Positions 7,201 through 43,218 of a stretch of 64,000 nt of DNA are shown here, in pieces. Location: NCBI GenBank assembly GCA_021818955.1, contig JAKASR010000010.1:27147-91146 (forward strand). The letters are read 5' to 3'. The translations under genes and the position numbers were made by a program. The notes beneath the pieces are model-generated. The model saw only the letters and a program-made list of their open reading frames with translations. It had not been told where the DNA came from and made no database searches. The stretch comes from Acidobacteriota bacterium (GTDB taxonomy: Bacteria; Acidobacteriota; Terriglobia; Terriglobales; SCQP01). Position 1 is the stretch's first letter. Every line of letters begins with the position of its first letter.

Positions 7201-7230
7201 GGAAGCGAGGCATAAAAGCCTGACGATCGC

Positions 7231-7413: not shown

Positions 7414-7437
7414 AGGTGTAGGGCCAGACGATTGGAA

Positions 7438-7929: not shown

Positions 7930-7997
7930 CTTTGGTTTTCAACGGCCCCAAAATCAGCCCTCAAGATTATTTATCTTGTTGGCAATTCAGGGCTTGA

Positions 7998-8074
7998 TGG
8001 TGGGCGCCATAGGACTCGAACCTATGACCTCTGCCGTGTGAAGACAGCGCTCTAACCAGCTGAGCTAGGCGCCC
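7998..8074 (-). tRNA. tRNA-Val (anticodon CAC), CCA encoded
   Basis: Minus-strand read: GGGCGCCTAGCTCAGCTGGTTAGAGCGCTGTCTTCACACGGCAGAGGTCATAGGTTCGAGTCCTATGGCGCCCACCA. It folds by hand into a cloverleaf with a 7-bp acceptor, GCTC/GAGC D-stem, CTGTC/GGCAG anticodon stem, loop TTCACAC, and T-arm ATAGG-TTCGAGT-CCTAT. Confidence 0.92.
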
Positions 8075-8194
8075 GGGAACATTCCAGTTTAGCAAATGCA
8101 AGCGAGGACAAGGGAGCGGAGCAAGCCCCGGAAGACAAAAAAGACGCCGGCGCGCCAGCAAGCTAGCATCGCGCGAGCAAGCTAGCATAAAGAT

Positions 8195-9402: not shown

Positions 9403-10968
9403 TTATACATGGGCAGGAGCGGTTTTGGAGGCTTGTGGGAACAGCACGGCAAAATGGGAACCCTGGCCCGGCTGGCTCTGCACCCGAATCTGTCCATGAT
9501 GCTCGGCAACGATGCCATACACGGTGGCCAGCCCCAAGCCGGTGCCCTTCTCCGGCCCTTTAGTGGTGAAATAAGGCTCGAAAATACGCGCTTGGGTTTC
9601 GGCGTCCATGCCCTGTCCGGTATCGGAAACCTGCAGACGCGCGTAAGTTCCAGCCGACAGATCGGTAGGCGTGCCGGGCACGGCCGTTTTAAATTCGCAG
9701 GTTTCGGTTTCAAGCCGCAAGGTCCCGCCCATCGGCATGGCATCGCAAGCATTGACGATCAGGTTCAGCAGGACCTGATCGAGCATGGCGGGGTCGGCCT
9801 GAATCTCGCCGGTCGGGTTCAAGGCCAGCTCGAGCTGCACCGAATCGGGCACCAGGCGTTTCATCCATTGCAACGAAAGGCGGACCAGGCGGCCGAGGTC
9901 GACGCGATTCAAAGTCATCGGCTGGCGCCGGCCAAAGGTCAGCAATTGCCGGGTCAACGAGGCGGCGCGCAGGCCGGCATCGCGAATATTTTCCACATGC
10001 CGCATGGCCGCGGAATTTTCCCGGAAACGGACGAAAAGCAGATCGCAGTTGCCGAGAATCACGGTCAGCATGTTATTGAAATCATGCGCGACGGCGCCGG
10101 CGAGCCGGCCCACGGTTTCCAGCCTCTGCGATTGTTGCAACTGCTGGGCAACCTGTTTGTACTCGGTGATATCGATAATGGTGCTTTCCAACACCAGGCC
10201 TTCCGGCCCGGATTCGAGCAAAGTGGCGTTTTCCAGCACGGTGATCAGGCGGCCGTCTCGGCTTAAAAGCTGCTGTTCGCTGTTGCTGGATTGTCCCTGT
10301 TCGAGCAGGCGGTTGAGGAAAGCCTTACGGCTGGCGGGCTGGGGATAGAAGCTATCGGCGGAGGCGCCGCGCAGCTGGCCGGGAGAATCGCAGCCCAGGA
10401 TGCGGGCCGCAGCGGGATTGGCATCCAGAATTTTGCCTTCCTCATTAACGCGAAGCACGCCGGCCAGATTGCGCTCGAACAACAGCCGGTAACGTTCCTC
10501 CGAGGCGCGCAGCGATTGGAGAAGTTGCTCGCGCTCGCGCTCGATCGACCGCCGCTGGCCGCGGCCGCGGGCTTCTTCCAATTCGCGCCGGATGGCGGCG
10601 CCCAGCCGGGCGAGGTTGGTTTTGAAGATGTAATCCTGAACGCCGAGCTTCATGGTGGCCACAGCCACCGCTTCGCCCACGCTGCCGGAGACCACCAGCA
10701 TCGGAATATCCATGTCTTGCCGGCGGAGCACGTCCAGAGCGCGCTCGACGCTGAAGTTGGGCAGATTGTAATCGGAGAGGATGACCTGCCATCCGTCAGC
10801 ACGATCCACGGCAGACCCACGCTGGTTGAGCGCAGCCAGGAAGCCGGGCTCGTCTTCAGCGCGGCTCGATTCAATCGGATCGAAGCCGGCGCGGCGCAGT
10901 TCCCGTAGCAGCAACCGGCAATCCTCTTCGGAATCTTCAATAATCAGCGCGCGCAGAGGCTCGCTCAT
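9403..10968 (-). CDS. REC-PAS-histidine kinase (N-terminal receiver hybrid sensor kinase)
   Basis: ORF 9403..11157. Preferred ATG at 10968 (MSEPLRALIIEDSEEDCRLL) is preceded by GAGAGGAGGAC. Contains a receiver domain (ILSDYNLPNF), a PAS region, the H-box AHDFNNMLTVILGN, and an ATPase domain (DTGQGMD...GTGLGLATVYGIV). Confidence 0.85.
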   Translation of the reverse strand: MSEPLRALIIEDSEEDCRLLLRELRRAGFDPIESSRAEDEPGFLAALNQRGSAVDRADGWQVILSDYNLPNFSVERALDVLRRQDMDIPMLVVSGSVGEAVAVATMKLGVQDYIFKTNLARLGAAIRRELEEARGRGQRRSIEREREQLLQSLRASEERYRLLFERNLAGVLRVNEEGKILDANPAAARILGCDSPGQLRGASADSFYPQPASRKAFLNRLLEQGQSSNSEQQLLSRDGRLITVLENATLLESGPEGLVLESTIIDITEYKQVAQQLQQSQRLETVGRLAGAVAHDFNNMLTVILGNCDLLFVRFRENSAAMRHVENIRDAGLRAASLTRQLLTFGRRQPMTLNRVDLGRLVRLSLQWMKRLVPDSVQLELALNPTGEIQADPAMLDQVLLNLIVNACDAMPMGGTLRLETETCEFKTAVPGTPTDLSAGTYARLQVSDTGQGMDAETQARIFEPYFTTKGPEKGTGLGLATVYGIVAEHHGQIRVQSQPGQGSHFAVLFPQASKTAPAHV

Positions 10969-11196
10969 CGTCCTCCTCTCCCCGGAAATGCCCGGCGATC
11001 CGCCGTGACTAGCGGCTTGGCATTGCAGGCACCCTCCCGCCGGCGGCACGCCGTACATGCTTGTTCCGCCCGCTTCTCGCCTCGCCCATCGCCTCTCTTT
11101 TCCGCCAGCATCCGGGAACCGGCAGCAATCCCGTACTGACCCCATGCTCTCTTGCAATTGACTCGGGAACCGTTTTTTCCGGATAACGGCAAGGTT

Positions 11197-11619
11197 TCAA
11201 TCTCGCGGAGGTTCGTTGAGCAGCATCCAATAAAGCCCCATTGAGCCGACGGCGCGCACGAACTGCTCGAATTCGACCGGCTTGCGGACGTAACTGTTAC
11301 ACCCCAGCTCATACCCCTGCAATACATCCTGCTCTTCGCGCGAGGAAGTGAGAATGACCACCGGCAAGTGGCGGGTGCGTTCATCCGCGCGCAGCCGCCG
11401 CAGCACTTCCAGGCCATCGAGCTTGGGCAGTTTGAGATCGAGCAGCACCACGGCGGGCAGCGGACGCTCAGGCGAACCGAGCAAAAAATCGATTGCGGCC
11501 GCTCCATCGCGTTCCACCGCGACTTCGTTGAGCACGCCGCTTTTTTTTAACGAGCGCAGCGTGAGAGCTTCATCGTCGGGATTATCCTCGACCAGCAGTA
11601 CATAGCGGGGCTGTTCCAT
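11197..11619 (-). CDS. single-domain response regulator (CheY/Rcp1-like)
   Basis: 140 aa. LLVEDNPDDEAL, LLDLKLPKLDGLEVLRRLR, VVILTSS and YVRKP motifs. No output domain. Confidence 0.9.
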   Translation of the reverse strand: MEQPRYVLLVEDNPDDEALTLRSLKKSGVLNEVAVERDGAAAIDFLLGSPERPLPAVVLLDLKLPKLDGLEVLRRLRADERTRHLPVVILTSSREEQDVLQGYELGCNSYVRKPVEFEQFVRAVGSMGLYWMLLNEPPRD

Positions 11620-13120
11620 CCGAATCCTCCTTGTCCTGCTTGGGGAAAGCGTTCGCCGTCAGAGCGGCCGCGGGCGTCGCGGCCGGCAGGGTGAAAAAGA
11701 CGGTCGCGCCGCGCTCGGGCGCGGCTTCGATGCGAAGCTGGCCGCCATGGCGGTGCACGATGCGATGCACGATGGCCAAACCGATGCCGGTGCCGGGGAA
11801 TTCATTGCCGCTGTGCAGGCGCTGGAAGGGGCGGAAGAGCTTGCCCGCCCAAGCCATGTCAAAACCGGCGCCATCGTCGCGCACAAAGCAGCCTAGCCAG
11901 GCTCCAGCGCCGTCAACGCCGCGCCCGTCTTCCGCTCCCAGTTCGATCCGGGCGCGGGGATGATGGGAAGTAAATTTCCAGGCATTGCTGAGCAGATTAG
12001 CCAACAGAATGCGCATTTGCGCCGCATCGCCGGCGACCTCCAGCCGTTCGGGCAGGATGAATTCGACCAGGCGCCGCGGTTCGGAGCGGCGCAATTCGGC
12101 ATCCACCTCGCGCGCCAGGGCGGCAAGGTTCAGGCGTTGCCAGCGCATTTCGGAGCGGGTCAGGCGCGAGAGTTCCAGCAAGTCGTCAATCAGCATCGCC
12201 ATGCGCTGGGCGCCGGCGCGAATGCGCGCCAGATAACCTCGCCCGGTGACATCGAGGCCATCGCTACAATCCTCCACCAAGGCCTGGCTATAACCATCCA
12301 GCGCCCGCAACGGGGCGCGCAGATCGTGCGCGACCGAATAGCTGAAGGCTTCCAGTTCCTGATTGGCGGCCGCCAGCTCGCGGTTGGCAATCTCCAACTC
12401 GGCGGTACGGGCGCGCACGCGCTCTTCGAGCCCTTTATTCAGGGCCGCCAGTTCCGCCGTCGCCTGCTCGCGCGCGGTCACATCGAGCGCCAGCACCATG
12501 CGGCACTCCCGCCCGGCAAATTGCATATCGTGAGAATAAATTTCGGCCAACAATTGGCGGCCATCCCGCGTCTGGTGCCGCCAGATCCCGGAATAGAATG
12601 TGCCGCCGCCGAAGTTGTTTTGCAGCATGGACTCCAGCCGCGGCTGCTCGGCCAGCGGGCGGATATCGGCTATGGTCATGGCCAGAAACTGCTCGCGGCT
12701 GTAGCCATATTGGGCGATAGCGGCATTGTTGACCGCGACAAAGCGCAATGATTCGCAGTCATACACCCATTTCGGTATCGGGCTGGCGTCAAACAGCAAC
12801 TGGTACTCGCGCGCAGTCAGGCGGACCCGGCTGCGCGCCAGCTTTCTACGCCGCTGCGTTTGCCAAAATTGCAGCAGAACCAGCAACACCAGCAGCAAAA
12901 TAATTATGGCGAACAGGCTTAGCAGGTTCTGCTGTTCACGAACCGTTTGAATGTTCAGGAATGCGCCCGCATGCCACAACCCGGCATCGCGGAAGTTTAG
13001 CGGGATTGCGCGACGATTTGGACCGAATATAATTTGGAACCGACTAAACATTGACAGGTACCGGCCAACGCGCGGCCATTCGATTAGCTCAGTAAGCCGC
13101 ATGGCGAACAATGATGTCAA
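11582..13120 (-). CDS. membrane-anchored PAS sensor histidine kinase
   Basis: 512-aa ORF; exact start uncertain. TM helix LLSLFAIIILLLVLLVLL, a PAS region, a coiled coil, the H-box FSYSVAHDLRAPLRAL, and a G-box (GTGIGLAIVHRIV). The 3-prime end overlaps the following response regulator gene by 38 nt. Confidence 0.8.
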   Translation of the reverse strand: MTSLFAMRLTELIEWPRVGRYLSMFSRFQIIFGPNRRAIPLNFRDAGLWHAGAFLNIQTVREQQNLLSLFAIIILLLVLLVLLQFWQTQRRRKLARSRVRLTAREYQLLFDASPIPKWVYDCESLRFVAVNNAAIAQYGYSREQFLAMTIADIRPLAEQPRLESMLQNNFGGGTFYSGIWRHQTRDGRQLLAEIYSHDMQFAGRECRMVLALDVTAREQATAELAALNKGLEERVRARTAELEIANRELAAANQELEAFSYSVAHDLRAPLRALDGYSQALVEDCSDGLDVTGRGYLARIRAGAQRMAMLIDDLLELSRLTRSEMRWQRLNLAALAREVDAELRRSEPRRLVEFILPERLEVAGDAAQMRILLANLLSNAWKFTSHHPRARIELGAEDGRGVDGAGAWLGCFVRDDGAGFDMAWAGKLFRPFQRLHSGNEFPGTGIGLAIVHRIVHRHGGQLRIEAAPERGATVFFTLPAATPAAALTANAFPKQDKEDSDGTAPLCTAGRG

Positions 13121-20374: not shown

Positions 20375-20791
20375 ATGATCGCTGTCGCATCCGCCACTTC
20401 CGCCACGCCCGGCCCCTATATCGTTCACTATTTGCCGGTGCTGATCCAGTTTGTGCTGGCGCTGGGCTTCGCGCTAGTGGTGGTGGGCCTCTCGTACGTC
20501 ATCGGGCAGCACCGCAACACAAAACGCAAGCTGACCCCCTATGAATGCGGCGTGCCGCCGATCGGCGACGCCCAGCATCGCTTCGCGGTCAAGTTCTACC
20601 TGGTCGCCATCGTTTTCATCCTGTTCGATATCGAAGCGGTTTTTCTGCTGCCCTGGGCGGTGGTTTTTCACCATCTGCTGCTCTTCGGCTTTTTTGAAAT
20701 GCTGGTGTACATGGCGATCGTGTTGACCGGGTTTTATTACATTTGGCGCAAGGGCGTATTGGATTGGAACCAACCGGAGCGCGCGGAATGA
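20375..20791 (+). CDS. nuoA: NADH-quinone oxidoreductase subunit A
   Basis: 138 aa, three TM segments, conserved LTPYECGVPP and FDIEAVFLLPWA motifs. Confidence 0.92.
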   Translation: MIAVASATSATPGPYIVHYLPVLIQFVLALGFALVVVGLSYVIGQHRNTKRKLTPYECGVPPIGDAQHRFAVKFYLVAIVFILFDIEAVFLLPWAVVFHHLLLFGFFEMLVYMAIVLTGFYYIWRKGVLDWNQPERAE

Positions 20792-20819
20792 TGAGGCGCG
20801 CCCGCGAGTTTACCCGAGT

Positions 20820-21296
20820 ATGGCTCTGAACGAAGACATTGCCGCTCACCCGGCGGCGCAACGGCTGCAAGCCCTGCTTCCAGGCTCGATCGAGCGCCTG
20901 CGGCACGACCGCGGCGAGCTCTCGATCTGGATTCCGGCGGCGCAATGGGGACAGGCCGCCGCCGCCTTGCGCGATGACGCCGAACTGGATTTCAAGCTGC
21001 TCTGCGACTTGAGTTGCGCCGACTGGCGCACCACCGCGCCGCGGTTTGAACTGGCCTACCAGCTTTATTCGCTCAACCGCCGCGACTGGCTGCGGGTGAA
21101 GGTCGGCGCCGACGAAACCCAGCCGGTTCCCACCGTGACCGGCATCTGGCCGACCGCCAACTGGTTTGAACGCGAAATTTTCGATTTGTTCGGCATCCGT
21201 TTCGAGGGACATCCCGACCTGCGCCGCATCGTGCTACCGGAAAACTGGGAAGGCCACCCGCTGCGCAAGGATTATCCGGTGGAGGGCTACCGTTAA
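20820..21296 (+). CDS. nuoC: NADH-quinone oxidoreductase subunit C
   Basis: 158 aa with the 30-kDa subunit motif PTANWFEREIFDLFGIRFEGHPDLRRI. Starts 28 nt after the nuoA stop. Confidence 0.92.
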   Translation: MALNEDIAAHPAAQRLQALLPGSIERLRHDRGELSIWIPAAQWGQAAAALRDDAELDFKLLCDLSCADWRTTAPRFELAYQLYSLNRRDWLRVKVGADETQPVPTVTGIWPTANWFEREIFDLFGIRFEGHPDLRRIVLPENWEGHPLRKDYPVEGYR

Positions 21297-22525
21297 TGAG
21301 CGCCTCTGACAACCTCGGCGCCGCCGCTTCCGGTATTGGCCTGGAGCGCGCCGATGCCGAGGGCCGGCACCTGGTCTTGAACATGGGGCCGCAGCACCCC
21401 TCCACCCACGGCGTGCTGCGCCTGCTTCTGGAACTTGACGGCGAGGTGGTGGTTAAAGCCCAGCCCGATATCGGCTATCTCCACACCGGAATTGAAAAAA
21501 GCTGCGAGTCGAAATTCTATCAGCAGGCGGTGACGCTGACCGACCGCATCGATTACCTCTGCCCGCTGACCAACAATCTCTGTTACGTGCTGGCGGTGGA
21601 AAAGCTGCTCCAGCTTCAGCCGCCGCGCAAGGCCGCCTGGACGCGGGTGATGCTCAATGAGCTGACCCGCCTGAACAGCCACCTGGTCTGGCTGGGCACC
21701 CATGCGCTCGATATCGGCGCCATGACCGTCTTCCTCTACTGCTTCCGCGAGCGCGAGGAAATTCTCAAAATCTTTGAGTATGCCAGCGGCCAGCGCATGA
21801 TGACTTCGTATTTCCGCATCGGCGGCTTGGCGCTGGAGCCCCCGCTCGGCATGCTCGAGCGGGTGAAAAAATTCATTGACTACTTCCCCGGCCGGGTGGA
21901 TGAATACGAGGCGCTGCTGACCCGCAACGCCATCTGGCGCGGCCGCACCCGCGGCGTCGGCTATATCTCCCCCGCGGACGCGATTGCCTGGGGAGTCACC
22001 GGCCCCTGCCTGCGCGCCGCCGGGGTCTCGCTCGATTTGCGCCGCGACCAGCCCTATTCCTGCTATGAAGAATTCCAGTTCGAGGTGCCGGTGCGCACCG
22101 AGAGCGACGTTTATTCGCGCTACCTGATCCGGCTGCAGGAGATGCGCGAGAGCGTGAAAATCATCCGCCAGGCGGTGGAAGGCATGCCCGAAGGCGACTT
22201 CAAGGCCGACGTTCCGGGCGTCACCCTGCCCGACCGCGACCAGATGAAGTCGGAGATGGAAGCCCTGATCTATCACTTTAAGATCGTGACCGAAGGCTTT
22301 GCCGTCCCCCCCGGCGAGGTGTATCAGGCGGTGGAATCGCCCCGCGGCCAGATGGGCTATTACGTGGTCAGCGATGGCGGCCCGCGGCCTTACCGGGTGC
22401 ACATGCGCTCGCCTTCCTATGTCAACCTGCAAGCCCTGCCCAAGATGGTTGAAGGGCGCCTGCTGGCCGACGTGGTCGCGGTCATCGGAAGCATCGATAT
22501 TGTTTTAGGCGAGGTGGACCGCTGA
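21296..22525 (+). CDS. nuoD: NADH-quinone oxidoreductase subunit D
   Basis: 409 aa. Motifs NMGPQHPSTHGVLRL and C-terminal SIDIVLGEVDR. TAATG overlap with nuoC. Confidence 0.95.
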   Translation: MSASDNLGAAASGIGLERADAEGRHLVLNMGPQHPSTHGVLRLLLELDGEVVVKAQPDIGYLHTGIEKSCESKFYQQAVTLTDRIDYLCPLTNNLCYVLAVEKLLQLQPPRKAAWTRVMLNELTRLNSHLVWLGTHALDIGAMTVFLYCFREREEILKIFEYASGQRMMTSYFRIGGLALEPPLGMLERVKKFIDYFPGRVDEYEALLTRNAIWRGRTRGVGYISPADAIAWGVTGPCLRAAGVSLDLRRDQPYSCYEEFQFEVPVRTESDVYSRYLIRLQEMRESVKIIRQAVEGMPEGDFKADVPGVTLPDRDQMKSEMEALIYHFKIVTEGFAVPPGEVYQAVESPRGQMGYYVVSDGGPRPYRVHMRSPSYVNLQALPKMVEGRLLADVVAVIGSIDIVLGEVDR

Positions 22526-23118
22526 TGGCGATCTTCAGCCCCGCATTGGAAGAACGCTTTCGCAAGCTGCTGGAAGCTTATCCGGTGAAGCGCTCGGCGC
22601 TGGTGCCGATGCTGCTGTATGCCCAGGATGAGCTCGGCTGGCTGACGCCCGAGGCGATTTCCGCCATCGCCGCCCGCCTGGAACTGCCGGAAATCGCCGT
22701 GCGCGAAACCATCGGCTATTACACCATGCTGCGCACCCAGCCGGCCGGGCGCTATCACGTGCAGGTCTGCACCAATATCAGTTGTCTGCTGCGCGGCGGC
22801 AATCGCATTCTGGAACACTGCCGCCAGCGCCTGGGCGAAGGCCCGGCTTCCGAAGACGGCGTGTTCTCGCTGGAAGAGGTGGAATGCATGGGCGCCTGTA
22901 GCTGGGCCCCGGCCATCCAGGTCAACTACGACTTCTTCCACGATCTCACCCCCGAGCGCGTCGACCGGATTCTCGAAGCTTACCGCCGCGGCGCGCCGCC
23001 CCAACCCGACGCCTCCTACGCCAGCAATGCGGCCACCACCGCCGGCCAAGCCGCTTCTTCATCGAACGGTTCCAGCGGCGCGGCGGCCAAAGGCCCGTCC
23101 GGAAAGGAAGGGGCATGA
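22525..23118 (+). CDS. nuoE: NADH-quinone oxidoreductase subunit E
   Basis: 197 aa. 2Fe-2S ligand pattern (VCTNISC...ECMGACSWAP). Ser/Ala-rich C-terminal tail. Confidence 0.92.
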   Translation: MAIFSPALEERFRKLLEAYPVKRSALVPMLLYAQDELGWLTPEAISAIAARLELPEIAVRETIGYYTMLRTQPAGRYHVQVCTNISCLLRGGNRILEHCRQRLGEGPASEDGVFSLEEVECMGACSWAPAIQVNYDFFHDLTPERVDRILEAYRRGAPPQPDASYASNAATTAGQAASSSNGSSGAAAKGPSGKEGA

Positions 23119-24413
23119 GCCATCCCGCCGAAGTCCGAGTCGTCAGCCAACGCTTCGACGACGCCGCCGCCTCGACCCTGGCCGGCTACCGCGCCAGCGA
23201 GGGCTTTCGCGCCCTGGAAAAGGCGCTGGCCATGACGCCCGCCGCCATCATTGACGAAGTCAAGCAGTCCGGCCTGCGCGGCCGCGGCGGCGCCGGCTTC
23301 CCCACCGGCATGAAATGGTCGTTCGTGCCGGCGCAATCGGCCAAGCCGAAATACGTGCTCTGCAATGCCGATGAAAGCGAGCCGGGCACCTGCAAAGACC
23401 GCCTGATTCTGGAACGCGATCCTTTTTCCATCCTGGAAGGCATGGCAATCTGCGGCCGCGCCATCGGCGCCCAACGGGGATATGTCTTCATCCGGGGCGA
23501 GTACCGCTACCTGATCGAGATCATGGAACGCGCCATCCAGGAAGCCTATGCCGCCGGCCTGCTGGGTAAAAATATCCTGGGCAGCGATTTTGAGTTCCAT
23601 ATCGCCGCGCATTCCGGCGCCGGCGCTTATGAATGCGGCGAGGAATCCGCTTTGATGGAATCGCTCGAGGGCAAGCGCGGCATCCCGCGCCTGAAGCCGC
23701 CCTTTCCCGCCATTTCGGGCCTGTACGGCGGCCCCACCATTATCAATAATGTCGAAACCCTGGCCAGCGTGCCGCACATTATTCTCGGCGGCGGCGCTTG
23801 GTTTGCCGCCTTCGGCCCTCCGAAAAACGGGGGCACCCGCCTGTTCTGCCTCAGCGGACACGTCCAGCGTCCCGGCGTTTACGAACTGCCGCTCGGCTTC
23901 CCGATGAAGCGCCTGATCGAAGAAATCGGCGGCGGCATTCCCGGCGGCCGCAAACTCAAAGCCGTGGTGCCCGGCGGCAGCTCGACTCCCATCCTTACCG
24001 CCGACGAAGCCCTCAACGTCAACCTGGATTTCGACTCGGTCGCCAAGGCGGGCTCGTTTCTGGGCTCCGGCGGCGTGGTGGTGGTGGACGAGCACGCCTG
24101 CATGGTCGAGTTTGCGCTGCGCATCATGCGTTTTTACCGGCATGAATCCTGCGGCTGGTGCGTCCCCTGCCGCGAAGGCACCAACTGGCTGGAGCTGACG
24201 CTGCGCCGTTTTCATGGCGGCGGCGGCCGGCAGCAGGATATCGACCTGATCCGCGGCGTTTCGGAAAACATTCTGGGCCGGACTTTCTGCCCGCTGGGCG
24301 ATGCGGCGGCGATGCCCACCATCTCGATCGTGCAAAAATTCCGCAGCGAGTTCGAAGATCACCTGAACGGACGGGCCTGCCCGTCCGCGGCCGGAAATGG
24401 GACCGGAGCATGA
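23115..24413 (+). CDS. nuoF: NADH-quinone oxidoreductase subunit F
   Basis: 432 aa. FMN/NADH motifs GLRGRGGAGFPTG and CNADESEPGTCKDR. 4Fe-4S motif ESCGWCVPCREG. Confidence 0.95.
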   Translation: MSHPAEVRVVSQRFDDAAASTLAGYRASEGFRALEKALAMTPAAIIDEVKQSGLRGRGGAGFPTGMKWSFVPAQSAKPKYVLCNADESEPGTCKDRLILERDPFSILEGMAICGRAIGAQRGYVFIRGEYRYLIEIMERAIQEAYAAGLLGKNILGSDFEFHIAAHSGAGAYECGEESALMESLEGKRGIPRLKPPFPAISGLYGGPTIINNVETLASVPHIILGGGAWFAAFGPPKNGGTRLFCLSGHVQRPGVYELPLGFPMKRLIEEIGGGIPGGRKLKAVVPGGSSTPILTADEALNVNLDFDSVAKAGSFLGSGGVVVVDEHACMVEFALRIMRFYRHESCGWCVPCREGTNWLELTLRRFHGGGGRQQDIDLIRGVSENILGRTFCPLGDAAAMPTISIVQKFRSEFEDHLNGRACPSAAGNGTGA

Positions 24414-26716
24414 GCGACACGAAAAAAACGGTGAATTTGACCGTCAATGGCCGGGCGCTGAGCGCGCCCGCCGGCATGCTGCTCATTGAAGCCTGCCGCG
24501 CCGCCGGCATCGAAGTGCCCTCCTTCTGCTACTACCCTAATCTTTCGCTTCAGGCCGCCTGCCGTATGTGCCTGGTGGAAGTGGAGAAGATGCCCAAGCT
24601 GCAGGCCGCCTGCACTCTTCCCGTGGCGGACGGCATGGTGGTGCGCACCGAGACCGCGCAGATCCAGGCGGCGCGCAAGGGCCAAATCGAATTTATCCTC
24701 ACCAACCACCCCCTGGACTGCCCCGTTTGCGACGCCGGTGGGCAATGCGAACTCCAGGACATGACTTTTCGCTACGGCGCCGCCTCCAGCCGCTTTATCG
24801 AACCCAAAAAACATCGGGATGAGCAGCAATGGTCGCCCATCGTTTATTTCGACCGCCCGCGCTGCATCCTGTGTTATCGCTGCGTGCGCGTTTGCGGCGA
24901 AGGCATGGACGTCTGGGCGCTGGGCGTGGGCGGGCATCGCGGCGTGGGTTCTTCCATCATTCCCAATTACGACGATCACCTGCAATGCGAAGAATGCGGC
25001 ATGTGCATCGATATCTGCCCGGTCGGCGCGCTCACCAGCGGCCCGTACCGCTATAAGACCCGCCCCTGGGAGATGCAGCACACCGCCGCCGTCTGCACCT
25101 TCTGCGGCGACGGCTGCCGCACCACGCTAGGCGTGCGCAACGGCCAGATCATGCGCGGCGACAACCGCGACAAGAGCGGCATCAACGGCGATTTTCTCTG
25201 CATCAAAGGCCGCTACGCTTTCGACTTCACCCGCCATCCCGAGCGCCTGCGCCAGCCGCTGGTGCGGCGCCACGGGCAACTGCAGCCCGCAAGCTGGGCG
25301 CACGCGCTGGAAGCCGCCGCCGCCGGCTTGAAGCGGCAGCGCGAGGCCGGCGCCGGCGTGGGCGTGATCGGCTCGACCCGCTGCCTGAACGAAGAAAGTT
25401 ATCAACTGCAAAAGCTGGCGCGCATCGGCCTCGGCACCAACCATATCGACCATCATCAGAGCGCCGACTTCCCTGCCCTGTTTGCGGCGCTGGCCGGGCA
25501 AAGCCACGCCGGCATGGCCGCCGCCGATGATTTAAAGACCGCCGCCGCGGTGCTGGTCGCCGGCGGAGACCCGGCCGAGCAGCATCCGCTGCTGGCCTGG
25601 AACCTGCGCTGGGGCTGGCGCCTGAGCGGCACGCGCCTTTATCTGCTCAACTCGCGCGAAATGAAACTGGCGCGCCAGGCGCATCGCGCCGCGCGCGTCG
25701 ATTCCGGCGCGCTGCCGCGGGCGATTGAATATCTGGCCGACCCGGCGAGCAGCGGGCAATTGCCGCCGTCTCAAATCACCCGCGCCCTGCCGCCCGACGA
25801 CAAACGCTGGCCGCAGACGCAAATTCCGCCGGCCGAGCCGATTCAGGAAACCCTGGCGGATTTCCGCCGCCAGTTGACGGAAGAAGCCGACCTGATCGTG
25901 GTGATCGGCGCCGAAATCGCCGGCGCAGCCTTGAACGCGCTGGTCAAATTCGCCTTGTCCCGCGCCGGGCGCTCCCGCTTCATGCTCCTGGGCGACGACG
26001 CCAACTCCCGCGGCGCCGCCGACATGGGACTTTATCCCCACCTGCTGCCCGGTTACGAGCCGCTGCAAAATGCCGATGCCCGCGACCGTTTTGCCCGGCT
26101 TTGGGGCGGGGCCATACCCGCCGCGCCCGGCATGAACGCGGAGGCGATGGCGCGCGCTTTCGCCCGCCGGGAATTAGGCGCGCTCTACATCGTTGGCGCC
26201 AATCCTTTCGGACGGCTGCGGATCGAGCGCGCCCCGGATGCCGGCTTTCTGGTGGCCCAGGATCTGTTCCTCACCGAAACCGCGCGCCAGGCGGACGTGG
26301 TGCTGCCCGCGCTCTCAAGCTACGAAAAGCAGGGCACCGTCACCAACACCTGCGGCGAAGTGCAACTGCAGCGCCGCGCGGCCGAGTTCGAGGGCGCCAA
26401 GCCCGACCTGGAAATCATCCACGAACTGGCCATGCTGTTGGGCCTCGACTGGGGCGCCGCCAGCCCGGAAAAAGTGCTGCAGGAAATCCGCGGCGCGGTG
26501 CGCGGCTATGAGCTTTCGCTGCTGCGCCTGTGGGCCGGACAAAGCCAGATGGCCGCGCCCATCGCCGCGGCCGCGGCCGCGCCCGGTGACGGCGGCGGCC
26601 AGGGCCTCGCCGGCGGAGCCGATACGCTGTTTGACGCCGGCACGCTCGGCCGCTACAGCGCCACTTTGAACTCGGTCATGGAAAAATATCTGCGCAAATC
26701 GGCGGAGGCGCGATGA
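24410..26716 (+). CDS. nuoG: NADH-quinone oxidoreductase subunit G
   Basis: ORF from 24158; preferred ATG at 24410 (MSDTKKTVNLTVNG), overlapping the nuoF stop as ATGA. Contains an N-terminal 2Fe-2S fold, HPLDCPVCDAGGQCELQD, CILCYRCVRVC, and a molybdopterin-oxidoreductase-like C-domain. Confidence 0.93.
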   Translation: MSDTKKTVNLTVNGRALSAPAGMLLIEACRAAGIEVPSFCYYPNLSLQAACRMCLVEVEKMPKLQAACTLPVADGMVVRTETAQIQAARKGQIEFILTNHPLDCPVCDAGGQCELQDMTFRYGAASSRFIEPKKHRDEQQWSPIVYFDRPRCILCYRCVRVCGEGMDVWALGVGGHRGVGSSIIPNYDDHLQCEECGMCIDICPVGALTSGPYRYKTRPWEMQHTAAVCTFCGDGCRTTLGVRNGQIMRGDNRDKSGINGDFLCIKGRYAFDFTRHPERLRQPLVRRHGQLQPASWAHALEAAAAGLKRQREAGAGVGVIGSTRCLNEESYQLQKLARIGLGTNHIDHHQSADFPALFAALAGQSHAGMAAADDLKTAAAVLVAGGDPAEQHPLLAWNLRWGWRLSGTRLYLLNSREMKLARQAHRAARVDSGALPRAIEYLADPASSGQLPPSQITRALPPDDKRWPQTQIPPAEPIQETLADFRRQLTEEADLIVVIGAEIAGAALNALVKFALSRAGRSRFMLLGDDANSRGAADMGLYPHLLPGYEPLQNADARDRFARLWGGAIPAAPGMNAEAMARAFARRELGALYIVGANPFGRLRIERAPDAGFLVAQDLFLTETARQADVVLPALSSYEKQGTVTNTCGEVQLQRRAAEFEGAKPDLEIIHELAMLLGLDWGAASPEKVLQEIRGAVRGYELSLLRLWAGQSQMAAPIAAAAAAPGDGGGQGLAGGADTLFDAGTLGRYSATLNSVMEKYLRKSAEAR

Positions 26717-27729
26717 CGGTTTCCACCTTCTTCGTCATCGCGATCGTGAAGGCGCTGGTGGCGCTGTTTATTCTCACCACGCTGATTGCCTATATCCAGT
26801 TGGCCGAGCGCAAAATTGTCGCCCGCATGCAGTCGCGCGTCGGCCCCACCCGCGTGGGTCCTTTCGGGCTCTTGCAGCCGCTGGCCGATGCCGTCAAATT
26901 CATTCTCAAGGAAGACATCGTGCCGGCCGGCGCCGAAAAAGGGCTGTACCTGCTGGCGCCCATTCTTTCGGTCACGCTGGCGCTGCTCGCCATTGCCGTC
27001 ATTCCGGTCGGACCGCCGCTAAGCCTTCATGGCTGGCTCATTCCGCTGCAGTTGACCAATCTGAATGTCGGCCTGCTCTACGTGCTCGGCGTCACCTCGC
27101 TGGGCGTCTATGGCATCGTGCTCGCCGGCTGGTCTTCCAACAGCAAATATTCCCTGCTGGGCTCGCTGCGCGCCGGCTCGCAGATGGTCAGCTACGAGCT
27201 GGCCCTGGGACTGGCCCTGGTCGGCCCGGTGCTGCTGGCCGGCACGCTGAGCCTGAACGGCATCGTTCATGCCCAGGCCGGCGGCCATTGGTTTCTTTGG
27301 ACGCAGTGGGTGGCCTTCTTCATCTATCTCACCGCCGCCTTTGCCGAAACCAACCGCATTCCCTTCGATTTGCCCGAGGCCGAAGGCGAGTTGGGCGCCG
27401 GCTATCATACCGAGTACAGCGCGATGAAGTTCGCCATGTTCTTCCTCGCCGAATACGCCAACATGATCACCGTGAGCTGCGTCGCCACGCTGGTCTTCCT
27501 TGGCGGCTGGTCGGGCCCGCTTTTTGGCCCGCCGGCGCTGCATATCCTGCTGCCGATTTTCTGGTTCTGCCTGAAAGTCGCGGCTTTCCTGTTCCTGTTT
27601 ATCTGGGTTCGCGGCACGCTGCCGCGCTTCCGTTACGACCAACTGATGGCCTTCGGCTGGAAGGTGCTGGTGCCGCTGGCCCTGGCCAATGTCATGGTTA
27701 CCAGCCTGGTGGCGGCGGTGCTGCATTAA
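26713..27729 (+). CDS. nuoH: NADH-quinone oxidoreductase subunit H
   Basis: 338 aa. Motifs AERKIVARMQSRVGP and AETNRIPFDLPEAEGEL. Eight TM segments. Confidence 0.95.
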   Translation: MTVSTFFVIAIVKALVALFILTTLIAYIQLAERKIVARMQSRVGPTRVGPFGLLQPLADAVKFILKEDIVPAGAEKGLYLLAPILSVTLALLAIAVIPVGPPLSLHGWLIPLQLTNLNVGLLYVLGVTSLGVYGIVLAGWSSNSKYSLLGSLRAGSQMVSYELALGLALVGPVLLAGTLSLNGIVHAQAGGHWFLWTQWVAFFIYLTAAFAETNRIPFDLPEAEGELGAGYHTEYSAMKFAMFFLAEYANMITVSCVATLVFLGGWSGPLFGPPALHILLPIFWFCLKVAAFLFLFIWVRGTLPRFRYDQLMAFGWKVLVPLALANVMVTSLVAAVLH

Positions 27730-27733
27730 GCCT

Positions 27734-28300
27734 ATGCAACTGGCGCTCTTCATTATCTTCGGCGGCCTGGCCCTGGCGGGCGCCATCAATCTGCTGGTGC
27801 AGAAAGCGCCCATCCATAGCGCGCTCTCGCTGGTTCTGGTCATGGGCGCGCTCGCCGTGCTGTTCCTGCTGCTCGGCGCCGAGTTCATCGCCTTCATCCA
27901 GATTCTGGTGTACGCCGGCGCCATCATGGTGCTGTTCGTCTTCGTCATCATGCTGCTGAACGCCCAGCCCAGCGAGCCGTCGCGCAGCAGCCGCATCGCC
28001 CGCTGGCTGGGACCGCCGGTGGCCGGCCTGCTGGGCATTATTCTGGCGGCGCTGGTCGCCAGCCGCTACCATCGCGTGCCCGCCAATATGGGCCAGCCCA
28101 TGTTCCAGGTCGAGGCCATCGGCAATGCCTTGTTTCATCAGTACCTTTTGCCCTTTGAAGTGACCTCGGTGCTGTTTCTGGTCGGCGTGGCCGGCGCGGT
28201 GATGCTCGCCTCCCGCCCGGATGAGGCGGCGCAAAATGCGCCGGCCGGGCATCTGGCCGAAACCGAAGCAATCTCCCGGAAAAAAGGAGCCGGGGCCTGA
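27734..28300 (+). CDS. nuoJ: NADH-quinone oxidoreductase subunit J
   Basis: ORF from 27689; preferred ATG at 27734 ([16 protein letters not shown]). Motif [27 protein letters not shown]. Starts 4 nt after the nuoH stop. Confidence 0.9.
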
Positions 28301-28611
28301 TGGTGGTGTCGTTAGCCGATTATCTGGTGCTGAGCGCGCTGCTGTTCGCCTTGGGCGTGGCCGGGTTCCTGTTTAAAAAGGACCTGATCACCGTCTTCAT
28401 CTCGATCGAGCTGATGCTGAACGGCGTCAACCTGACCTTTGTCGCTTTCAGCCATTACCTGCGCCAGAACGCGATTGACGGCAACCTGTTCGTCTTTTTC
28501 GTCATGGTGGTCGCCGCCGCCGAGGCCGCGGTCGGCCTGGCCATCATCATTGCCGTGGTGCGCAACCGCAATACGCTCAACATTGACAAGATGGATTTGA
28601 TGAAAAATTAA
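28300..28611 (+). CDS. nuoK: NADH-quinone oxidoreductase subunit K
   Basis: 103 aa, three TM segments. Motifs [11 protein letters not shown] and [11 protein letters not shown]. Confidence 0.93.
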
Positions 28612-28653: not shown

Positions 28654-30657
28654 ATGCCGATTGCTCTCCATCTCTGGCTGATCCCCGCGCTGTGCTTTCT
28701 GGGCTTTGCGCTGAATATCCTTTTCGGCCGGCTCTGGAGCAAGGCCGTGGCCGGCACGGTGGGCATCCTTTTTCCCGCCGCCGCCTTCCTCTGGGCGCTG
28801 CGCCTGGCCCTGGCCTGGGGCGGCTTCCCGTCGCCTTACCTGGAAAGCCATGGCGCCTGGATCCTGGCCGGCCCGCTGCGCATTCCCTTCAGCTTTCAAC
28901 TCGATCCCCTGTCGCTGACCATGGCGCTGATCGTCACCGGCGTGGGCCTGCTGATCCATATCTATTCGCTCGGCTATATGGCTGAGGAGGGCGGCTTTTA
29001 CCGCTACTTCGCCCTGCTCAACCTGTTCATGTTTTTCATGCTGATGCTGGTGCTGGCGGCCAATTACCTGCTGCTGTTTGTCGGCTGGGAAGGCGTCGGC
29101 TTCGCCAGCTACATGCTCATCGGCTTCTTCTTCCGCCGCGATTCCGCCGCGAAGGCCGGCATGAAAGCCTTCGTCGTCAACCGCATCGGCGACTTCGGCT
29201 TTCTCATCGGGCTCTTCTACCTCTTCCAGCTCTTCGGCGGCTTCGGTTACGCCCGCATCTTCCCGCAGGTCATGCGCATGCCCGCCGAAACCGGCTGGCA
29301 CGGCCCGCTGACCATCATTGCCCTGCTGCTGTTCGTGGGCGCGACCGGCAAATCGGCGCAGTTGCCGCTCTATGTCTGGCTGCCGGACGCCATGGAAGGC
29401 CCCACCCCGGTTTCCGCCCTCATCCACGCCGCCACCATGGTCACCGCCGGGGTGTATATGGTCGCCCGCTCGGCCGCCATCTTCGACCGCTCGCGGGCGG
29501 CGCTGGCAGTGGTGCTGGCGGTGGGCGCGCTGACCGCCATCTTTGCCGCCTCGATTGGCCTGCTGCAAAAAGACATCAAGCGCGTGCTGGCCTATTCCAC
29601 CGTCAGCCAGTTGGGCTACATGTTCATGGCTTGCGGCGCCGCCGTTTACGGCGCGGGCATCTTCCACCTGATGACCCATGCCTTCTTCAAGGGCCTGCTC
29701 TTCCTCGGCGCCGGCAGCGTTATTCACGCCATGCACGGCGAGCAGGATATGTTCCGCATCCGCCATCTCGCCACCGGCGGCTTGAAAAAATACGCGCCCG
29801 TTACTTTTTGGACTTTCCTGATCGCTACCTGCGCCATCTCCGGCATCCCCGGCTTTTCCGGCTACTTCAGCAAAGACATGATCCTGGAAAACGTCTTCAG
29901 CGGCGCCGCCGGCAACCGTTTCTGGTGGGCGGTGGGCGCGATTGCCGCGCTGATGACCTCCTTCTACATGTTCCGTGCGGTGTTTGTGACCTTCTTCCCG
30001 GAAGGCGATGCGCCGCCTCCACGCCTCGCTCCCGAACTGGAAGGCGTCGCGCATGCCACCGGCCAGGAGCCGGCGGGCGTGGCCGCGCATGCGGCGCATC
30101 CGCACGAATCGCCCTGGGTGATGACCATTCCGCTGATCCTGCTCGCCATTTTGGCGGCGATTGGCGGCTATTTCAATCTGGACGGCCGCTTCATGAATTT
30201 CCTCGCGCCGGTCTTTATTCCCGCCGGCGCCGGCACCATCGCCACCGCGCCCGAGGCGGCGCACGCCGGCTTGCTGGTCAGGTCGATTCCCCTCATCGCG
30301 GCGTTTGGCGGGCTGTTGCTGGCCTGGTGGATGTATCGCCTCCGGCCCCGCCTGGCGCCTCGCGCCGCCCAGGCCCTGCCCCAACTTTATGCCCTGATCT
30401 TCAACAAATATTGGGTTGATGAGCTTTACCAGGCGGCGATCGTCGGCCCGCTGGGCTGGATTTCGCGCCGGGTGCTGTGGCGCGGCGTGGACCAGGGCCT
30501 GATTGACGGCGGCGTCAACGGCATCGGACATCTGGCCCAGGCCAGTGGCAACCTCGTGCGCAAGCAAGAGTCCGGCTTAATCCGCAGTTACGCGAGCTGG
30601 ATCGGCGCCGGCGCGGTCGTCGTGCTGATCTATGTGGTCTGGCTGGGGGTCAGATAA
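28654..30657 (+). CDS. nuoL: NADH-quinone oxidoreductase subunit L
   Basis: 667 aa antiporter-like subunit. Motifs WEGVGFASYMLIGFF, GKSAQLPLYVWLPDAMEGPTPVSALIHAATMV, and a C-terminal lateral-helix region. Confidence 0.95.
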   Translation: MPIALHLWLIPALCFLGFALNILFGRLWSKAVAGTVGILFPAAAFLWALRLALAWGGFPSPYLESHGAWILAGPLRIPFSFQLDPLSLTMALIVTGVGLLIHIYSLGYMAEEGGFYRYFALLNLFMFFMLMLVLAANYLLLFVGWEGVGFASYMLIGFFFRRDSAAKAGMKAFVVNRIGDFGFLIGLFYLFQLFGGFGYARIFPQVMRMPAETGWHGPLTIIALLLFVGATGKSAQLPLYVWLPDAMEGPTPVSALIHAATMVTAGVYMVARSAAIFDRSRAALAVVLAVGALTAIFAASIGLLQKDIKRVLAYSTVSQLGYMFMACGAAVYGAGIFHLMTHAFFKGLLFLGAGSVIHAMHGEQDMFRIRHLATGGLKKYAPVTFWTFLIATCAISGIPGFSGYFSKDMILENVFSGAAGNRFWWAVGAIAALMTSFYMFRAVFVTFFPEGDAPPPRLAPELEGVAHATGQEPAGVAAHAAHPHESPWVMTIPLILLAILAAIGGYFNLDGRFMNFLAPVFIPAGAGTIATAPEAAHAGLLVRSIPLIAAFGGLLLAWWMYRLRPRLAPRAAQALPQLYALIFNKYWVDELYQAAIVGPLGWISRRVLWRGVDQGLIDGGVNGIGHLAQASGNLVRKQESGLIRSYASWIGAGAVVVLIYVVWLGVR

Positions 30658-30659
30658 TC

Positions 30660-32321
30660 ATGGTTTTCGACCATCGCCTCATCAGCCTGATCATCGCGAC
30701 GCCGCTCCTCGGCGGGCTGGCGCTGCTGGCTACCCGAACGGCTTCCGGAGCGCGCCGCGTGGCGCTGGTTTTTACGCTCATCGCCTTCGCGCTTTCGCTC
30801 CGTTTGCCTTTCGGCTTCAACAGCGGCGCCGATGGCATGCAGTTTGTCCAGCGCCTGAGCTGGATTCCCAGTTTCCATATCCATTACTACGTTGGCGTGG
30901 ATGGCCTCAGCCTCTGGCTGGTGCCGCTGACCACCCTGCTGACCGTCATCGGCGTGCTGGTTTCCTGGAAGAGCGTCGGCGAGCGCGCCCGCACCTTCTA
31001 CCTGCTGCTGCTGTTGCTCGATGCCGGCATGGTCGGGGTTTTTGTCAGCCTCGACATGTTCCTGTTCTACCTCTTCTGGGAAGCTTCGCTGGTGCCGATG
31101 GCGCTGCTGATCGGCATTTTCGGCCACGAGCGCCGCATCTACGCCGCCGTCAAATTCTTCCTCTACACCATGGCCGGCTCGGTGCTGATGCTGGCCGGCA
31201 TTCTCTGGCTCTATAACCTGACCGGCACCTTCGATTGGGTCAGGATTCAGCATCTCGCCGCTTCCGGCGCGCTGCACATCGGCTCCGCCACCGCCATCTG
31301 GCTGTTTCTCGCGTTCTTTATCGCCTTCGCCATCAAGGTGCCGCTCTTCCCGTTCCACACCTGGCTGCCCGACGCGCACGTCGAAGCGCCCACCGCCGGC
31401 TCGGTGTTGCTGGCGGGCGTGCTGCTGAAAATGGGGCCTTACGGCATGCTGCGCTTCTGCCTGCCGCTGTTCCCCGGCGCGGCGCGCGCGCTCGCCACCC
31501 CGATCCTTATCCTCGGCCTGATCGGCATCATCTACGGCGGCCTGGTCGCCTTCGTCCAGCCCAACATGAAAAAGCTTGTGGCGTATAGCTCGGTCAGCCA
31601 CATGGGCTTCATCATTGTCGGCGTCTTTACCTTCACCTCCATCGGCTTGCAGGGCTCGGTGTACCAGATGCTGAATCATGGCGTTTCCACCGCCGGCTTG
31701 TTCATCCTGGTCGGCATGCTCTACGAGCGCCGCCATACCTTCGAGTTGAAGGAATACGGCGGCATCGCCACCGCCATGCCGGTGTTTGCCGGCTTCTTTG
31801 TGCTGCTGGTCATGTCTTCCGCCGGATTGCCGCTGCTCAACGGTTTTGTGGGCGAGTTTCTGATCTCGCTCGGCGCCTTCCTGTCGCGGCACGTCATCGG
31901 CATCGTCGCGATTTCGGGCGTGATCGTCTCGGCCATCTACCTGCTCTACTGGACCAAAGCCACCATCTGGGGCGAGTTGCAAAATCCGAAAAATCAGGGC
32001 CTCAAAGATATCAATGCCCGCGAACGGCTGGTGCTGGCCACCCTGGGCGGGCTGGCGCTGGCGATGGGCCTGGCTTCGCCTCTGTTTTTGAATAAGATTG
32101 CCCCCTCGGCAAATGCGGAAATGCGGCCTTTCCAGGCGCCGGCGGCGTTCGCCTTGCCCAGCGGCGCCATGCCGCGCCCGGAGATTGCGCTACGGCAAGC
32201 TCGCTTTGCGGCTCCGCTCATGGCTCATATCTCGCCGCCTTCCCTGCCAAAACCAGGTCCGCTCCACCCGGGTTCGCCGTCACCCGCCGCCCGCCTTGCC
32301 GGCGCGGGAGGCGAACAATGA
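30660..32321 (+). CDS. nuoM: NADH-quinone oxidoreductase subunit M
   Basis: 553 aa antiporter-like subunit. Motifs FYLFWEASLVPM and KVPLFPFHTWLPDAHVEAPTAGSVLLAG. Pro-rich C-terminal tail of about 60 aa. Confidence 0.95.
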   Translation: MVFDHRLISLIIATPLLGGLALLATRTASGARRVALVFTLIAFALSLRLPFGFNSGADGMQFVQRLSWIPSFHIHYYVGVDGLSLWLVPLTTLLTVIGVLVSWKSVGERARTFYLLLLLLDAGMVGVFVSLDMFLFYLFWEASLVPMALLIGIFGHERRIYAAVKFFLYTMAGSVLMLAGILWLYNLTGTFDWVRIQHLAASGALHIGSATAIWLFLAFFIAFAIKVPLFPFHTWLPDAHVEAPTAGSVLLAGVLLKMGPYGMLRFCLPLFPGAARALATPILILGLIGIIYGGLVAFVQPNMKKLVAYSSVSHMGFIIVGVFTFTSIGLQGSVYQMLNHGVSTAGLFILVGMLYERRHTFELKEYGGIATAMPVFAGFFVLLVMSSAGLPLLNGFVGEFLISLGAFLSRHVIGIVAISGVIVSAIYLLYWTKATIWGELQNPKNQGLKDINARERLVLATLGGLALAMGLASPLFLNKIAPSANAEMRPFQAPAAFALPSGAMPRPEIALRQARFAAPLMAHISPPSLPKPGPLHPGSPSPAARLAGAGGEQ

Positions 32322-33835
32322 ACTTCGTGCCCGGAGTCTGGTATGTGCGCATCCTGCCCGAAATCGTGCTGACGGTTTTCGGAGCCTTGATCCTGCTGGT
32401 GGAAGGCCCCGCCCGCGCCGGCAATCGCGGCCGCCTCTGCGGCGCGCTGGCGCTGCTCGGCTCGCTGGCCGCTTTCGCCGCCTGCTTCGTCCAGGCCCGC
32501 TATCCCGGCGAGGCGTTTTCCGGCTTGTTTCGCGTCGACCGGCTGGCAATCTACTTCCACTTCCTGATCGTGCTCGCCACCCTGGTGGTGGTGTTATTGG
32601 CGATGGATTACCTGCGCGCCCAGCATTATGAGCGCGGCGAGTTTTACGCGCTGGTGCTCTTCGCCGCCGTCGGCATGGGGTTCATGGTGGGCTCGGTCGA
32701 GCTGGTGATGATCTTCATCGGCCTCGAAATTTCCTCCATTTCCAGCTATATCCTGGCCGGCTACCGGCGCAACGCGCCGCGCTCCACCGAAGCCGCCTTG
32801 AAATACCTGCTGCTCGGCTCCTTTGCCACCGCGTTCTTTCTCTACGGCATCGCCCTGATTTACGGCGGCACCGGCTCGACCATGATTGACGCCATCGCCC
32901 GCGGCGTCGCCGGCAAAATCTCGATGGGCGGGCTGACCGGCGCCAGCCTGATTCCCGCCGCCGCCGGCCTGATGTTCGTCGGCCTGGCCTTCAAAGTCTC
33001 GGCCGTGCCCTTCCAGGTCTGGACGCCGGATGTCTATGAGGGCGCCCCCGCGCCGGTCACCGGCCTGCTCGCGACCGCCCCTAAAGCCGCCGCCTTCGTC
33101 GTCTTTTTGCGCGTCTTCTACGTCGCGCTCAACAGCTATAGCCATGACTGGTTCTGGCTGGTCTGGACGGCTTCCCTGCTCTCCATGACCGCCGGCAATC
33201 TCGCCGCGCTGCTGCAAAACAACATCAAGCGCATGCTGGCGTACTCTTCCATCGCGCACGCCGGCTACGTGCTGGTCGCCTTTGCCGCGCTGGCCGTGAA
33301 CCCCACCGTTTTGCAATCCGTTTCCGGGCCCGCCGCGCTGCTGCCCGGCCACGGCGTCGCCGCCATCCTGTTTTATCTGGCCGCCTATGTCGCCATGAAT
33401 CTGGGCGCGTTCGCCGTCATCGCCCATTTCGCCCACCGGAACGAGCGCTACGTCGAGTTGAACGATTACGCCGGCCTCGGCTTCCGCTTCCCCTTCGCCT
33501 CTGCCGCCCTCGCTCTCTTCCTGCTCTCGCTGATAGGTGTGCCGCTTACCGCCGGATTTTTCGGCAAGCTCTACGTCTTCCGCGCCGCCCTCGACGCCCA
33601 TCTGGTCGGCCTGGTCATCGTCGCCCTGCTCAACAGCGCCTTGGCGGCGTTCTATTACCTGCGCGTGATCGTGTATATGTATATGCGCCCGTCCGGGCAG
33701 GAAGTTCCCGCTCCCGCCCCCTCCGGCGCTTTCCGGCTGGTGATGGCAATCTGCATCATCGCGGTATTGTGGCTGGGCATTTTCCCCGAGACCATTCTCG
33801 GCTTCGCCCACGCCGCCGCCTATCACCTGCGGTGA
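32318..33835 (+). CDS. nuoN: NADH-quinone oxidoreductase subunit N
   Basis: 505 aa antiporter-like subunit. Motifs GLEISSISSYILAGY, FKVSAVPFQVWTPDVYEGAP and MLAYSSIAHAGY. Confidence 0.95.
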   Translation: MNFVPGVWYVRILPEIVLTVFGALILLVEGPARAGNRGRLCGALALLGSLAAFAACFVQARYPGEAFSGLFRVDRLAIYFHFLIVLATLVVVLLAMDYLRAQHYERGEFYALVLFAAVGMGFMVGSVELVMIFIGLEISSISSYILAGYRRNAPRSTEAALKYLLLGSFATAFFLYGIALIYGGTGSTMIDAIARGVAGKISMGGLTGASLIPAAAGLMFVGLAFKVSAVPFQVWTPDVYEGAPAPVTGLLATAPKAAAFVVFLRVFYVALNSYSHDWFWLVWTASLLSMTAGNLAALLQNNIKRMLAYSSIAHAGYVLVAFAALAVNPTVLQSVSGPAALLPGHGVAAILFYLAAYVAMNLGAFAVIAHFAHRNERYVELNDYAGLGFRFPFASAALALFLLSLIGVPLTAGFFGKLYVFRAALDAHLVGLVIVALLNSALAAFYYLRVIVYMYMRPSGQEVPAPAPSGAFRLVMAICIIAVLWLGIFPETILGFAHAAAYHLR

Positions 33836-43195: not shown

Positions 43196-43218
43196 GGAAA
43201 GAATGATTTTACGCGGAA

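Follow-up and report, generated by a model that had tools for sequence, protein, structure and literature searches.

A twelve-gene complex I operon without nuoB and nuoI in a Terriglobales contig follows a layout already known from that order

Results and Discussion

We analyzed a stretch of 64,000 nt (64 kb; hereafter, the window) from an Acidobacteriota genome of the order Terriglobales (assembly GCA_021818955.1, contig JAKASR010000010.1, positions 27,147 to 91,146), which carries a complex I operon with nuoC directly after nuoA and nuoJ directly after nuoH, so that nuoB and nuoI are missing from their usual sites. The twelve subunits that the operon encodes very probably belong to a canonical complex I whose NuoB and NuoI come from unlinked monocistronic genes. 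This layout is already known, having been tabulated for Acidobacterium capsulatum and for the SbA metagenome-assembled genomes (MAGs); it is unusual in general, but standard for Terriglobales.

In the arrangement that we propose, 12 of the 14 core subunits would be encoded by one operon, nuoACDEFGHJKLMN, in a split layout typical of Terriglobales and related Acidobacteriota. NuoI (clusters N6a and N6b) and NuoB (cluster N2), the small iron-sulfur (Fe-S) subunits connecting NuoG with the quinone site, would come from single unlinked genes elsewhere on the chromosome and would join the complex in trans, giving an ordinary 14-subunit NADH:quinone oxidoreductase. The short nuoH-nuoJ spacer would simply couple translation of the adjoining genes. 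We infer that the unlinked NuoB and NuoI assemble with the products of this operon, and that the source genome encodes both.

The operon and its two missing genes

Twelve consecutive genes on the plus strand, assigned with Pfam and NCBIfam models, follow the order nuoA-C-D-E-F-G-H-J-K-L-M-N, with neither nuoB nor nuoI among them, and all 12 open reading frames (ORFs) are intact. The features, with scores in bits and, where given, the cut-off of the model, are as follows:

nuoA, 20375..20791, plus strand: PF00507, 123.8 bits; stop codon TGA at 20789-20791
nuoA-nuoC spacer, 20792..20819, plus strand: 28 nt at the usual nuoB site, read directly from the sequence
nuoC, 20820..21296, plus strand: PF00329, 159.6 bits; TIGR01961, 138.1 (cut-off 122.45)
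nuoD, 21296..22525, plus strand: TIGR01962, 569.7 (cut-off 459); end-to-end match to Nqo4/NDUFS2; GPQHPSTHG and DRIDY motifs
nuoE, 22525..23118, plus strand: PF01257, 159.9 bits
nuoF, 23115..24413, plus strand: PF01512 and PF10589
nuoG, 24410..26716, plus strand: ATG at 24410 overlapping the nuoF stop as ATGA; TIGR01973, 464.4 bits; full NuoG Pfam domain set
nuoH, 26713..27729, plus strand: PF00146, 421 bits; NF004741, 355.9 (cut-off 305)
nuoH-nuoJ spacer, 27730..27733, plus strand: GCCT, 4 nt at the usual nuoI site, read from the sequence; junction identical in the relative L005
nuoJ, 27734..28300, plus strand: PF00499, 130.3 bits
nuoK, 28300..28611, plus strand: PF00420; NF004320, 111.2 (cut-off 57)
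nuoL, 28654..30657, plus strand: NF005141, 716.9 (cut-off 556)
nuoM, 30660..32321, plus strand: TIGR01972, 571.1 (cut-off 263.8)
nuoN, 32318..33835, plus strand: TIGR01770, 406.4 (cut-off 332.6)

Each of the membrane-arm and Q-module genes (nuoA, C, D, H, J, K, L, M, and N) scored far over its Pfam gathering score, and the N-module genes nuoE, nuoF, and nuoG are complete by their Pfam domains. NuoG fell marginally under the TIGR01973 cut-off of 470.05 despite containing every NuoG Pfam domain, and an automatic annotator might therefore miss its name. With nuoE, nuoF, and nuoG present and a single nuoM, the operon differs from the 11-subunit type lacking nuoE-G (EFG-less) and from the "2M" type; with nuoB and nuoI missing, and only 28 and 4 nt at the respective junctions, it also departs from the contiguous 14-gene nuoA-N order. 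It instead matches the order of the A. capsulatum ACP_0296-ACP_0284 operon, in which A adjoins C and H adjoins J.

The nuoH stop codon, TAA, occupies 27727-27729 and is followed by GCCT and the nuoJ ATG at 27734. Our reading thus confirmed the junction that the original prediction had described, including its coordinates, its spacer, and the lack of nuoI. An alternative in-frame nuoJ start lies at 27689, 41 nt within nuoH, from which the product would be 203 aa long. The start at 27734 is favored, as the L005 gene is called from the equivalent ATG and this start gives the usual NuoJ N-terminus.

That prediction had also described the omission as precise, and this too was borne out. No homologue of NuoI or NuoB was found anywhere in the 64 kb. 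A scan of all six frames of the window returned no CxxCxxCxxxC motif beyond two in NuoG, and the NuoB-type motifs CCxxE, GxCxxxGG, and GCPP occurred in none of its real ORFs. In tblastn searches of the window with E. coli NuoB and NuoI and Thermus Nqo6 and Nqo9, the best match (E = 0.016) was to the ferredoxin domain of NuoG only. Remnants of nuoI or nuoB at the two junctions were considered and rejected, the spacers being so short and holding no remnant. Fusion of either subunit to a neighboring gene was likewise rejected, as the domain maps show no fusion.

Conservation of the layout among relatives

The order nuoA-C-D-E-F-G-H-J-K-L-M-N without B or I also occurs in four independent relatives from separate assemblies. 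Their NuoH proteins are 91% (L005), 78% (L001/L002 and L003), and 66% (L004) identical to that of the window, and the operons of L002 and L004 lie on contigs of 2.06 and 1.88 Mb, respectively. The closest named homologues of the window NuoH (66-78% identity) belong to Terriglobales or Acidobacteria MAGs, in agreement with a host from the Terriglobia. Between the window and L005, the nuoH-nuoJ junction TAAGCCTATG is identical. The spacer is longer in two other relatives, at 118 nt in L001 and 511 nt in L004; the L004 gap encodes a four-helix-bundle IVP/bAvd-like ORF and no ferredoxin.

Small genes of this kind (PF05635, 23S_rRNA_IVP/bAvd-like) are found inside the nuo operons of three relatives (L001, 12024-12386; L003, 11459-11821; L004, 11055-11516). 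Their insertion sites vary between nuoK-nuoL and nuoH-nuoJ, and none is present in the window. They resemble mobile or selfish insertions that an essential operon tolerates.

Ratios of nonsynonymous to synonymous substitution rates (dN/dS, Nei-Gojobori) between the window and L005 were 0.00-0.23 across all 12 genes; against L001 they were 0.18-0.46, with dS near saturation. By these sequence comparisons, all 12 nuo genes are under purifying selection. The shared order and the selection on it uphold the suggestion of the original prediction that this is a conserved arrangement rather than a random deletion.

An assembly error, a recent deletion, or a decaying and unexpressed operon would also leave two genes missing, and nothing that we found speaks for any of these. 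At least four independent assemblies share the identical layout, as do isolates and published MAGs; the junction is the same in L005, whose NuoH is 91% identical; the ORFs are intact and their dN/dS is low; and the orthologous operon of A. capsulatum is transcribed. The data refute this explanation, and we assign it virtually no chance of being correct.

Outside the lineage, nuoI has a fixed place. We scanned genomes for nuoI, with one genome per species, and mapped the best 80 loci for nuo genes; nuoH lay directly upstream of nuoI in 77 of the 80, usually with nuoJ next. These loci were mostly from Actinomycetota and Chloroflexota, because the CIFCG[LF]C peptide patterns that were used miss the common acidobacterial CIFCGYC, and L194 was the only acidobacterial locus among them.

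A different omission was observed in three Joint Genome Institute (JGI) soil contigs (L255, L267, and L275), in which the order nuoA-B-C-D-E-F-H-J-K and onward lacks both nuoG and nuoI (in L267, F at 4831-6078, H at 6205-7116, and J at 7142-7663). These operons retain nuoB, have H-J gaps of ~25 nt, and represent another lineage with an I-less and G-less operon.

Published record of the same operon

The same operon has been tabulated for A. capsulatum, which is classified in Terriglobales. Table S3 of a transcriptome study of this species (PMC11636273) assigns ACP_0296 to nuoA, ACP_0295 to C, ACP_0294 to D, ACP_0292-0290 to E-G, ACP_0289 to H, ACP_0288 to J, and ACP_0287-0284 to K-N, and leaves the nuoB and nuoI rows blank for this operon, which was transcribed at ~500-1700 transcripts per million at 10 uM O2. 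The A. capsulatum operon belongs to a different species and is like that of the window in gene order and in both missing genes, and the paper refers to "the whole nuoA-N operon" without comment on the two gaps. A second, 2M-type operon begins at ACP_2565 and includes nuoB (ACP_2566) and nuoI (ACP_2569). The identical operon is thus both known from the order's type isolate and expressed in it.

Operons of the form nuoACD(EFG)HJKLMN were likewise recorded for three Acidobacteria MAGs from peatland, SbA1, SbA5, and SbA6, with B and I on other scaffolds (Table S2b of Hausmann et al. 2018, PMC6018796). In SbA1 (Ca. Sulfotelmatobacter, also classified in Terriglobales), the table gives nuoA as SBA1_940026, C as 940025, D as 940024, E as 940022, F as 940021, G as 940019, H as 940018, and J as 940017, with three copies of nuoB and two of nuoI, all on scaffolds other than that of the operon. 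SbA6 has the same order as SbA1 and SbA5. The MAG of SbA5 is >95% complete and contains a single 2M-type operon that includes B and I (SBA5_330048-59) and a single twelve-gene operon that lacks both (SBA5_540024-36). Beyond these, it has exactly one more nuoB (SBA5_10081) and one more nuoI (SBA5_50034), each unlinked. SbA1, SbA5, and SbA7 belong to subdivision 1 (PMC6018796). The SbA MAGs differ from the window in also holding EFG-less copies, and the paper records the order without discussion.

Unlinked nuoI and nuoB in Acidobacteriota

Three of the 80 loci in the nuoI scan had no nuoH upstream, and one of these was L194, from a Solibacteraceae MAG, in which nuoI stands alone between genes for an S26 signal peptidase and a homocysteine-S-methyltransferase/MTHFR. 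A search with its product returned ~1900 relatives, the best 120 of which were 76-100% identical to it, and this acidobacterial family is at most 54% identical to the nuoI products of other phyla. The unlinked members score 143-144 bits against TIGR01971 (cut-off 113). On three further contigs (L229, L230, and L315; 0.68, 0.94, and 3.15 Mb), nuoI was again alone in the same neighborhood with no other nuo genes, in the order moaC, S26 peptidase, histidine kinase/LytTR, nuoI, MTHFR, UbiE-like. In all four loci, nuoI has the S26 signal peptidase and histidine kinase/LytTR genes upstream, whereas the downstream genes encode an S-methyltransferase-MTHFR fusion and a UbiE-like methyltransferase.

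In L230 (ERZ25039555 contig_7823), the histidine kinase, LytTR, cation efflux, and MTHFR-fusion genes are fragmented relative to L229 and L315 (~5076-9042 and 10619-12431). The split genes of this long-read contig are probably an assembly frameshift error.

For nuoB, 29 of the 80 best loci from JGI metagenomes (L239-L307) had no adjoining nuoA or nuoC. Their products form one family with a nearly invariant core and three to four N-terminal subtypes, and a profile search with this family led to proteins named Acidobacteriaceae by NCBI. In the Acidobacteriaceae MAGs GCA_050014235.1 and GCA_035933805.1 and in a 3.47 Mb contig (L312, L314, and L317), nuoB is alone beside amt-glnB-glnD, which lie upstream, with an OmpA-like gene and a BNR/sortilin gene downstream. 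The unlinked NuoB proteins score 237-243 bits against TIGR01957 (cut-off 142.7). A tblastn search of plasmids with Thermus Nqo6 gave no Acidobacteria match.

The two NuoB proteins named Acidobacteriaceae carry a "DRxxFGxLxSxxKN...EVxWG" extension (examples of the subtypes are P0450, P0432, P0436, and P0407). SbA1 was reported to have several copies of nuoB per genome, to which the N-terminal subtypes may correspond.

The unlinked genes in acidobacterial MAGs, together with the published tables, support the proposal of the original prediction that B and I reside at another locus. Several points weigh against this conclusion. The nuoB and nuoI of the window's own genome were not located in the 64 kb that the window covers. 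The contigs retrieved with an unlinked nuoI were named only Solibacteraceae or Vicinamibacterales and none Terriglobales, so that, for Terriglobales, unlinked nuoI rests on the published table for SbA1, SbA5, and SbA7. Finally, the only B and I entries in the A. capsulatum table are those of the second (2M) operon (PMC11636273).

Among the contigs retrieved, nuoH, nuoB, and nuoI were not found together on one contig, and no assembly was shared between the sample accessions for nuoH (ERZ25039477 and ERZ25039496), nuoI (ERZ25039547, ERZ25039555, and ERZ25039594), and nuoB (ERZ25070695 and two GCA assemblies). The match tables list only the contig of each cluster representative, and many genomes collapse into one cluster because NuoI and NuoB are so conserved.

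The A. capsulatum table invites a second explanation, in which NuoB and NuoI are borrowed from a self-contained, EFG-less 2M operon (nuoA-B-C-D-I-H-J-K-L-M-M-N) and one B/I pair serves two complexes. It is consistent with the location of ACP_2566 and ACP_2569 beside blank rows for the twelve-gene operon, and with SbA1, which has three B/I-less operons or fragments vs only two unlinked nuoI. A comparable sharing between clusters has been proposed for the second complex I cluster of Chloroflexus aurantiacus (PMC3150298), in which, unlike in the window, the missing core gene is nuoG and B and I are present. In SbA5, however, a single additional B and a single additional I, both unlinked, match its one B/I-less operon, even though a 2M operon with both genes is also present. 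Moreover, the single-gene position of nuoB is kept in three Acidobacteriaceae-type contigs, and the single-gene nuoI is highly conserved and abundant; such conservation would be hard to explain if the unlinked genes were dispensable. We therefore consider borrowing from a 2M operon unlikely, and supply from the unlinked genes the better account.

Adjoining nuoB and nuoI with no further nuo gene on the contig were observed in a Chthonomonadaceae MAG (L163, 5039-6062) and a JGI contig (L273, 1623-2582). Their NuoI proteins are Thermus/actinobacterial-like and fall outside the acidobacterial family, which suggests a separate "nuoBI" mini-operon in another phylum.

Quinone site and electron path

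In complex I, quinone necessarily receives its electrons from cluster N2, which NuoB carries. NuoD of the window aligns end to end with Nqo4/NDUFS2 (Nqo4 chain 2fug_4, E = 1e-128 over residues 25-409) and, in the NDUFS2 alignment, keeps the quinone-site residues that work with N2: His38 in GPQHPSTHGVLRL (GPQHPSTHG) and Tyr87 in DRIDY (Thermus numbering). Retention of these motifs argues for a quinone site built to receive electrons from cluster N2 of NuoB.

The original prediction had also raised an alternative connecting module, by which the complex would function without NuoB and NuoI or along a different electron path. The one observation in its favor is that neither gene occurs in the operon or in the 64 kb window. 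We found no Fe-S or other conserved candidate gene in or beside the operon of the window or of the relatives L001-L005, in which the extra small genes are the IVP/bAvd-like insertions, whose positions vary. Outside the operon, the window carries housekeeping genes: plsX, citrate synthase, two histidine kinases, an RND pump, an alcohol dehydrogenase, glyQS, RNase E/G, PBP2, mreCB, argS, and dnaJ. Given also the NuoD residues, the role of N2, and the bona fide NuoB and NuoI that the lineage encodes at unlinked sites, we regard such a module as extremely improbable, and this part of the prediction was not supported.

Among the housekeeping genes on the minus strand, the RNase E/G ORF (44113-47130) encodes 1005 aa, of which residues 641-911 form the catalytic domain, behind an N-terminal extension of ~640 aa, and the Pfam match of the GlyQ ORF (42212-43588) begins only at residue 155. 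Either both proteins have long N-terminal extensions or their starts were over-called.

Known complex I systems and implications

All 12 genes of the window have orthologues in the canonical nuoA-N operon (E. coli b2288-b2276 and the Actinomycetota and Chloroflexota loci L150-L228), where their relative order is the same but nuoB separates A from C and nuoI separates H from J. The A. capsulatum and SbA operons are the closest known cases; the second cluster of Chloroflexus and the NUO-2 complex of Nitrospina gracilis (PMC3578206), whose nuoB2 is encoded apart from the cluster, are more distant analogues. NUO-2 differs in keeping nuoI in the cluster (nuoACHIJKLMN) and in its unusual NuoF and NuoG, and it was proposed to have a function linked to ferredoxin. 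The arrangement in the window adds no new kind of system to these and is, in that sense, already known.

It is possible, though we hold it to be rather doubtful, that the uncoupling of nuoB and nuoI is functional instead of neutral, with separately regulated genes that are matched to, or shared among, the complex I isoforms (the twelve-gene NADH type, the EFG-less type, and the 2M type). Two of the neighborhoods described above fit such a role: nuoB lies beside the nitrogen-signaling genes amt-glnB-glnD, and nuoI beside a histidine kinase/LytTR pair and a UbiE-like quinone methyltransferase. The three to four N-terminal subtypes of the unlinked NuoB could specify the partner complex.

The layout raises a modest question, namely, how the NuoB and NuoI paralogues are allotted to the two or three complex I isoforms of these abundant soil bacteria, and why these two Fe-S subunits in particular became uncoupled from the operon. 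It also has a practical consequence, in that pathway-completeness tools would score complex I of Terriglobales MAGs as "incomplete," or leave nuoB and nuoI blank as in two published tables, unless the unlinked genes are sought. The layout is no pointer to a new mechanism of electron transfer; it is a real but ordinary finding for this lineage of soil acidobacteria.

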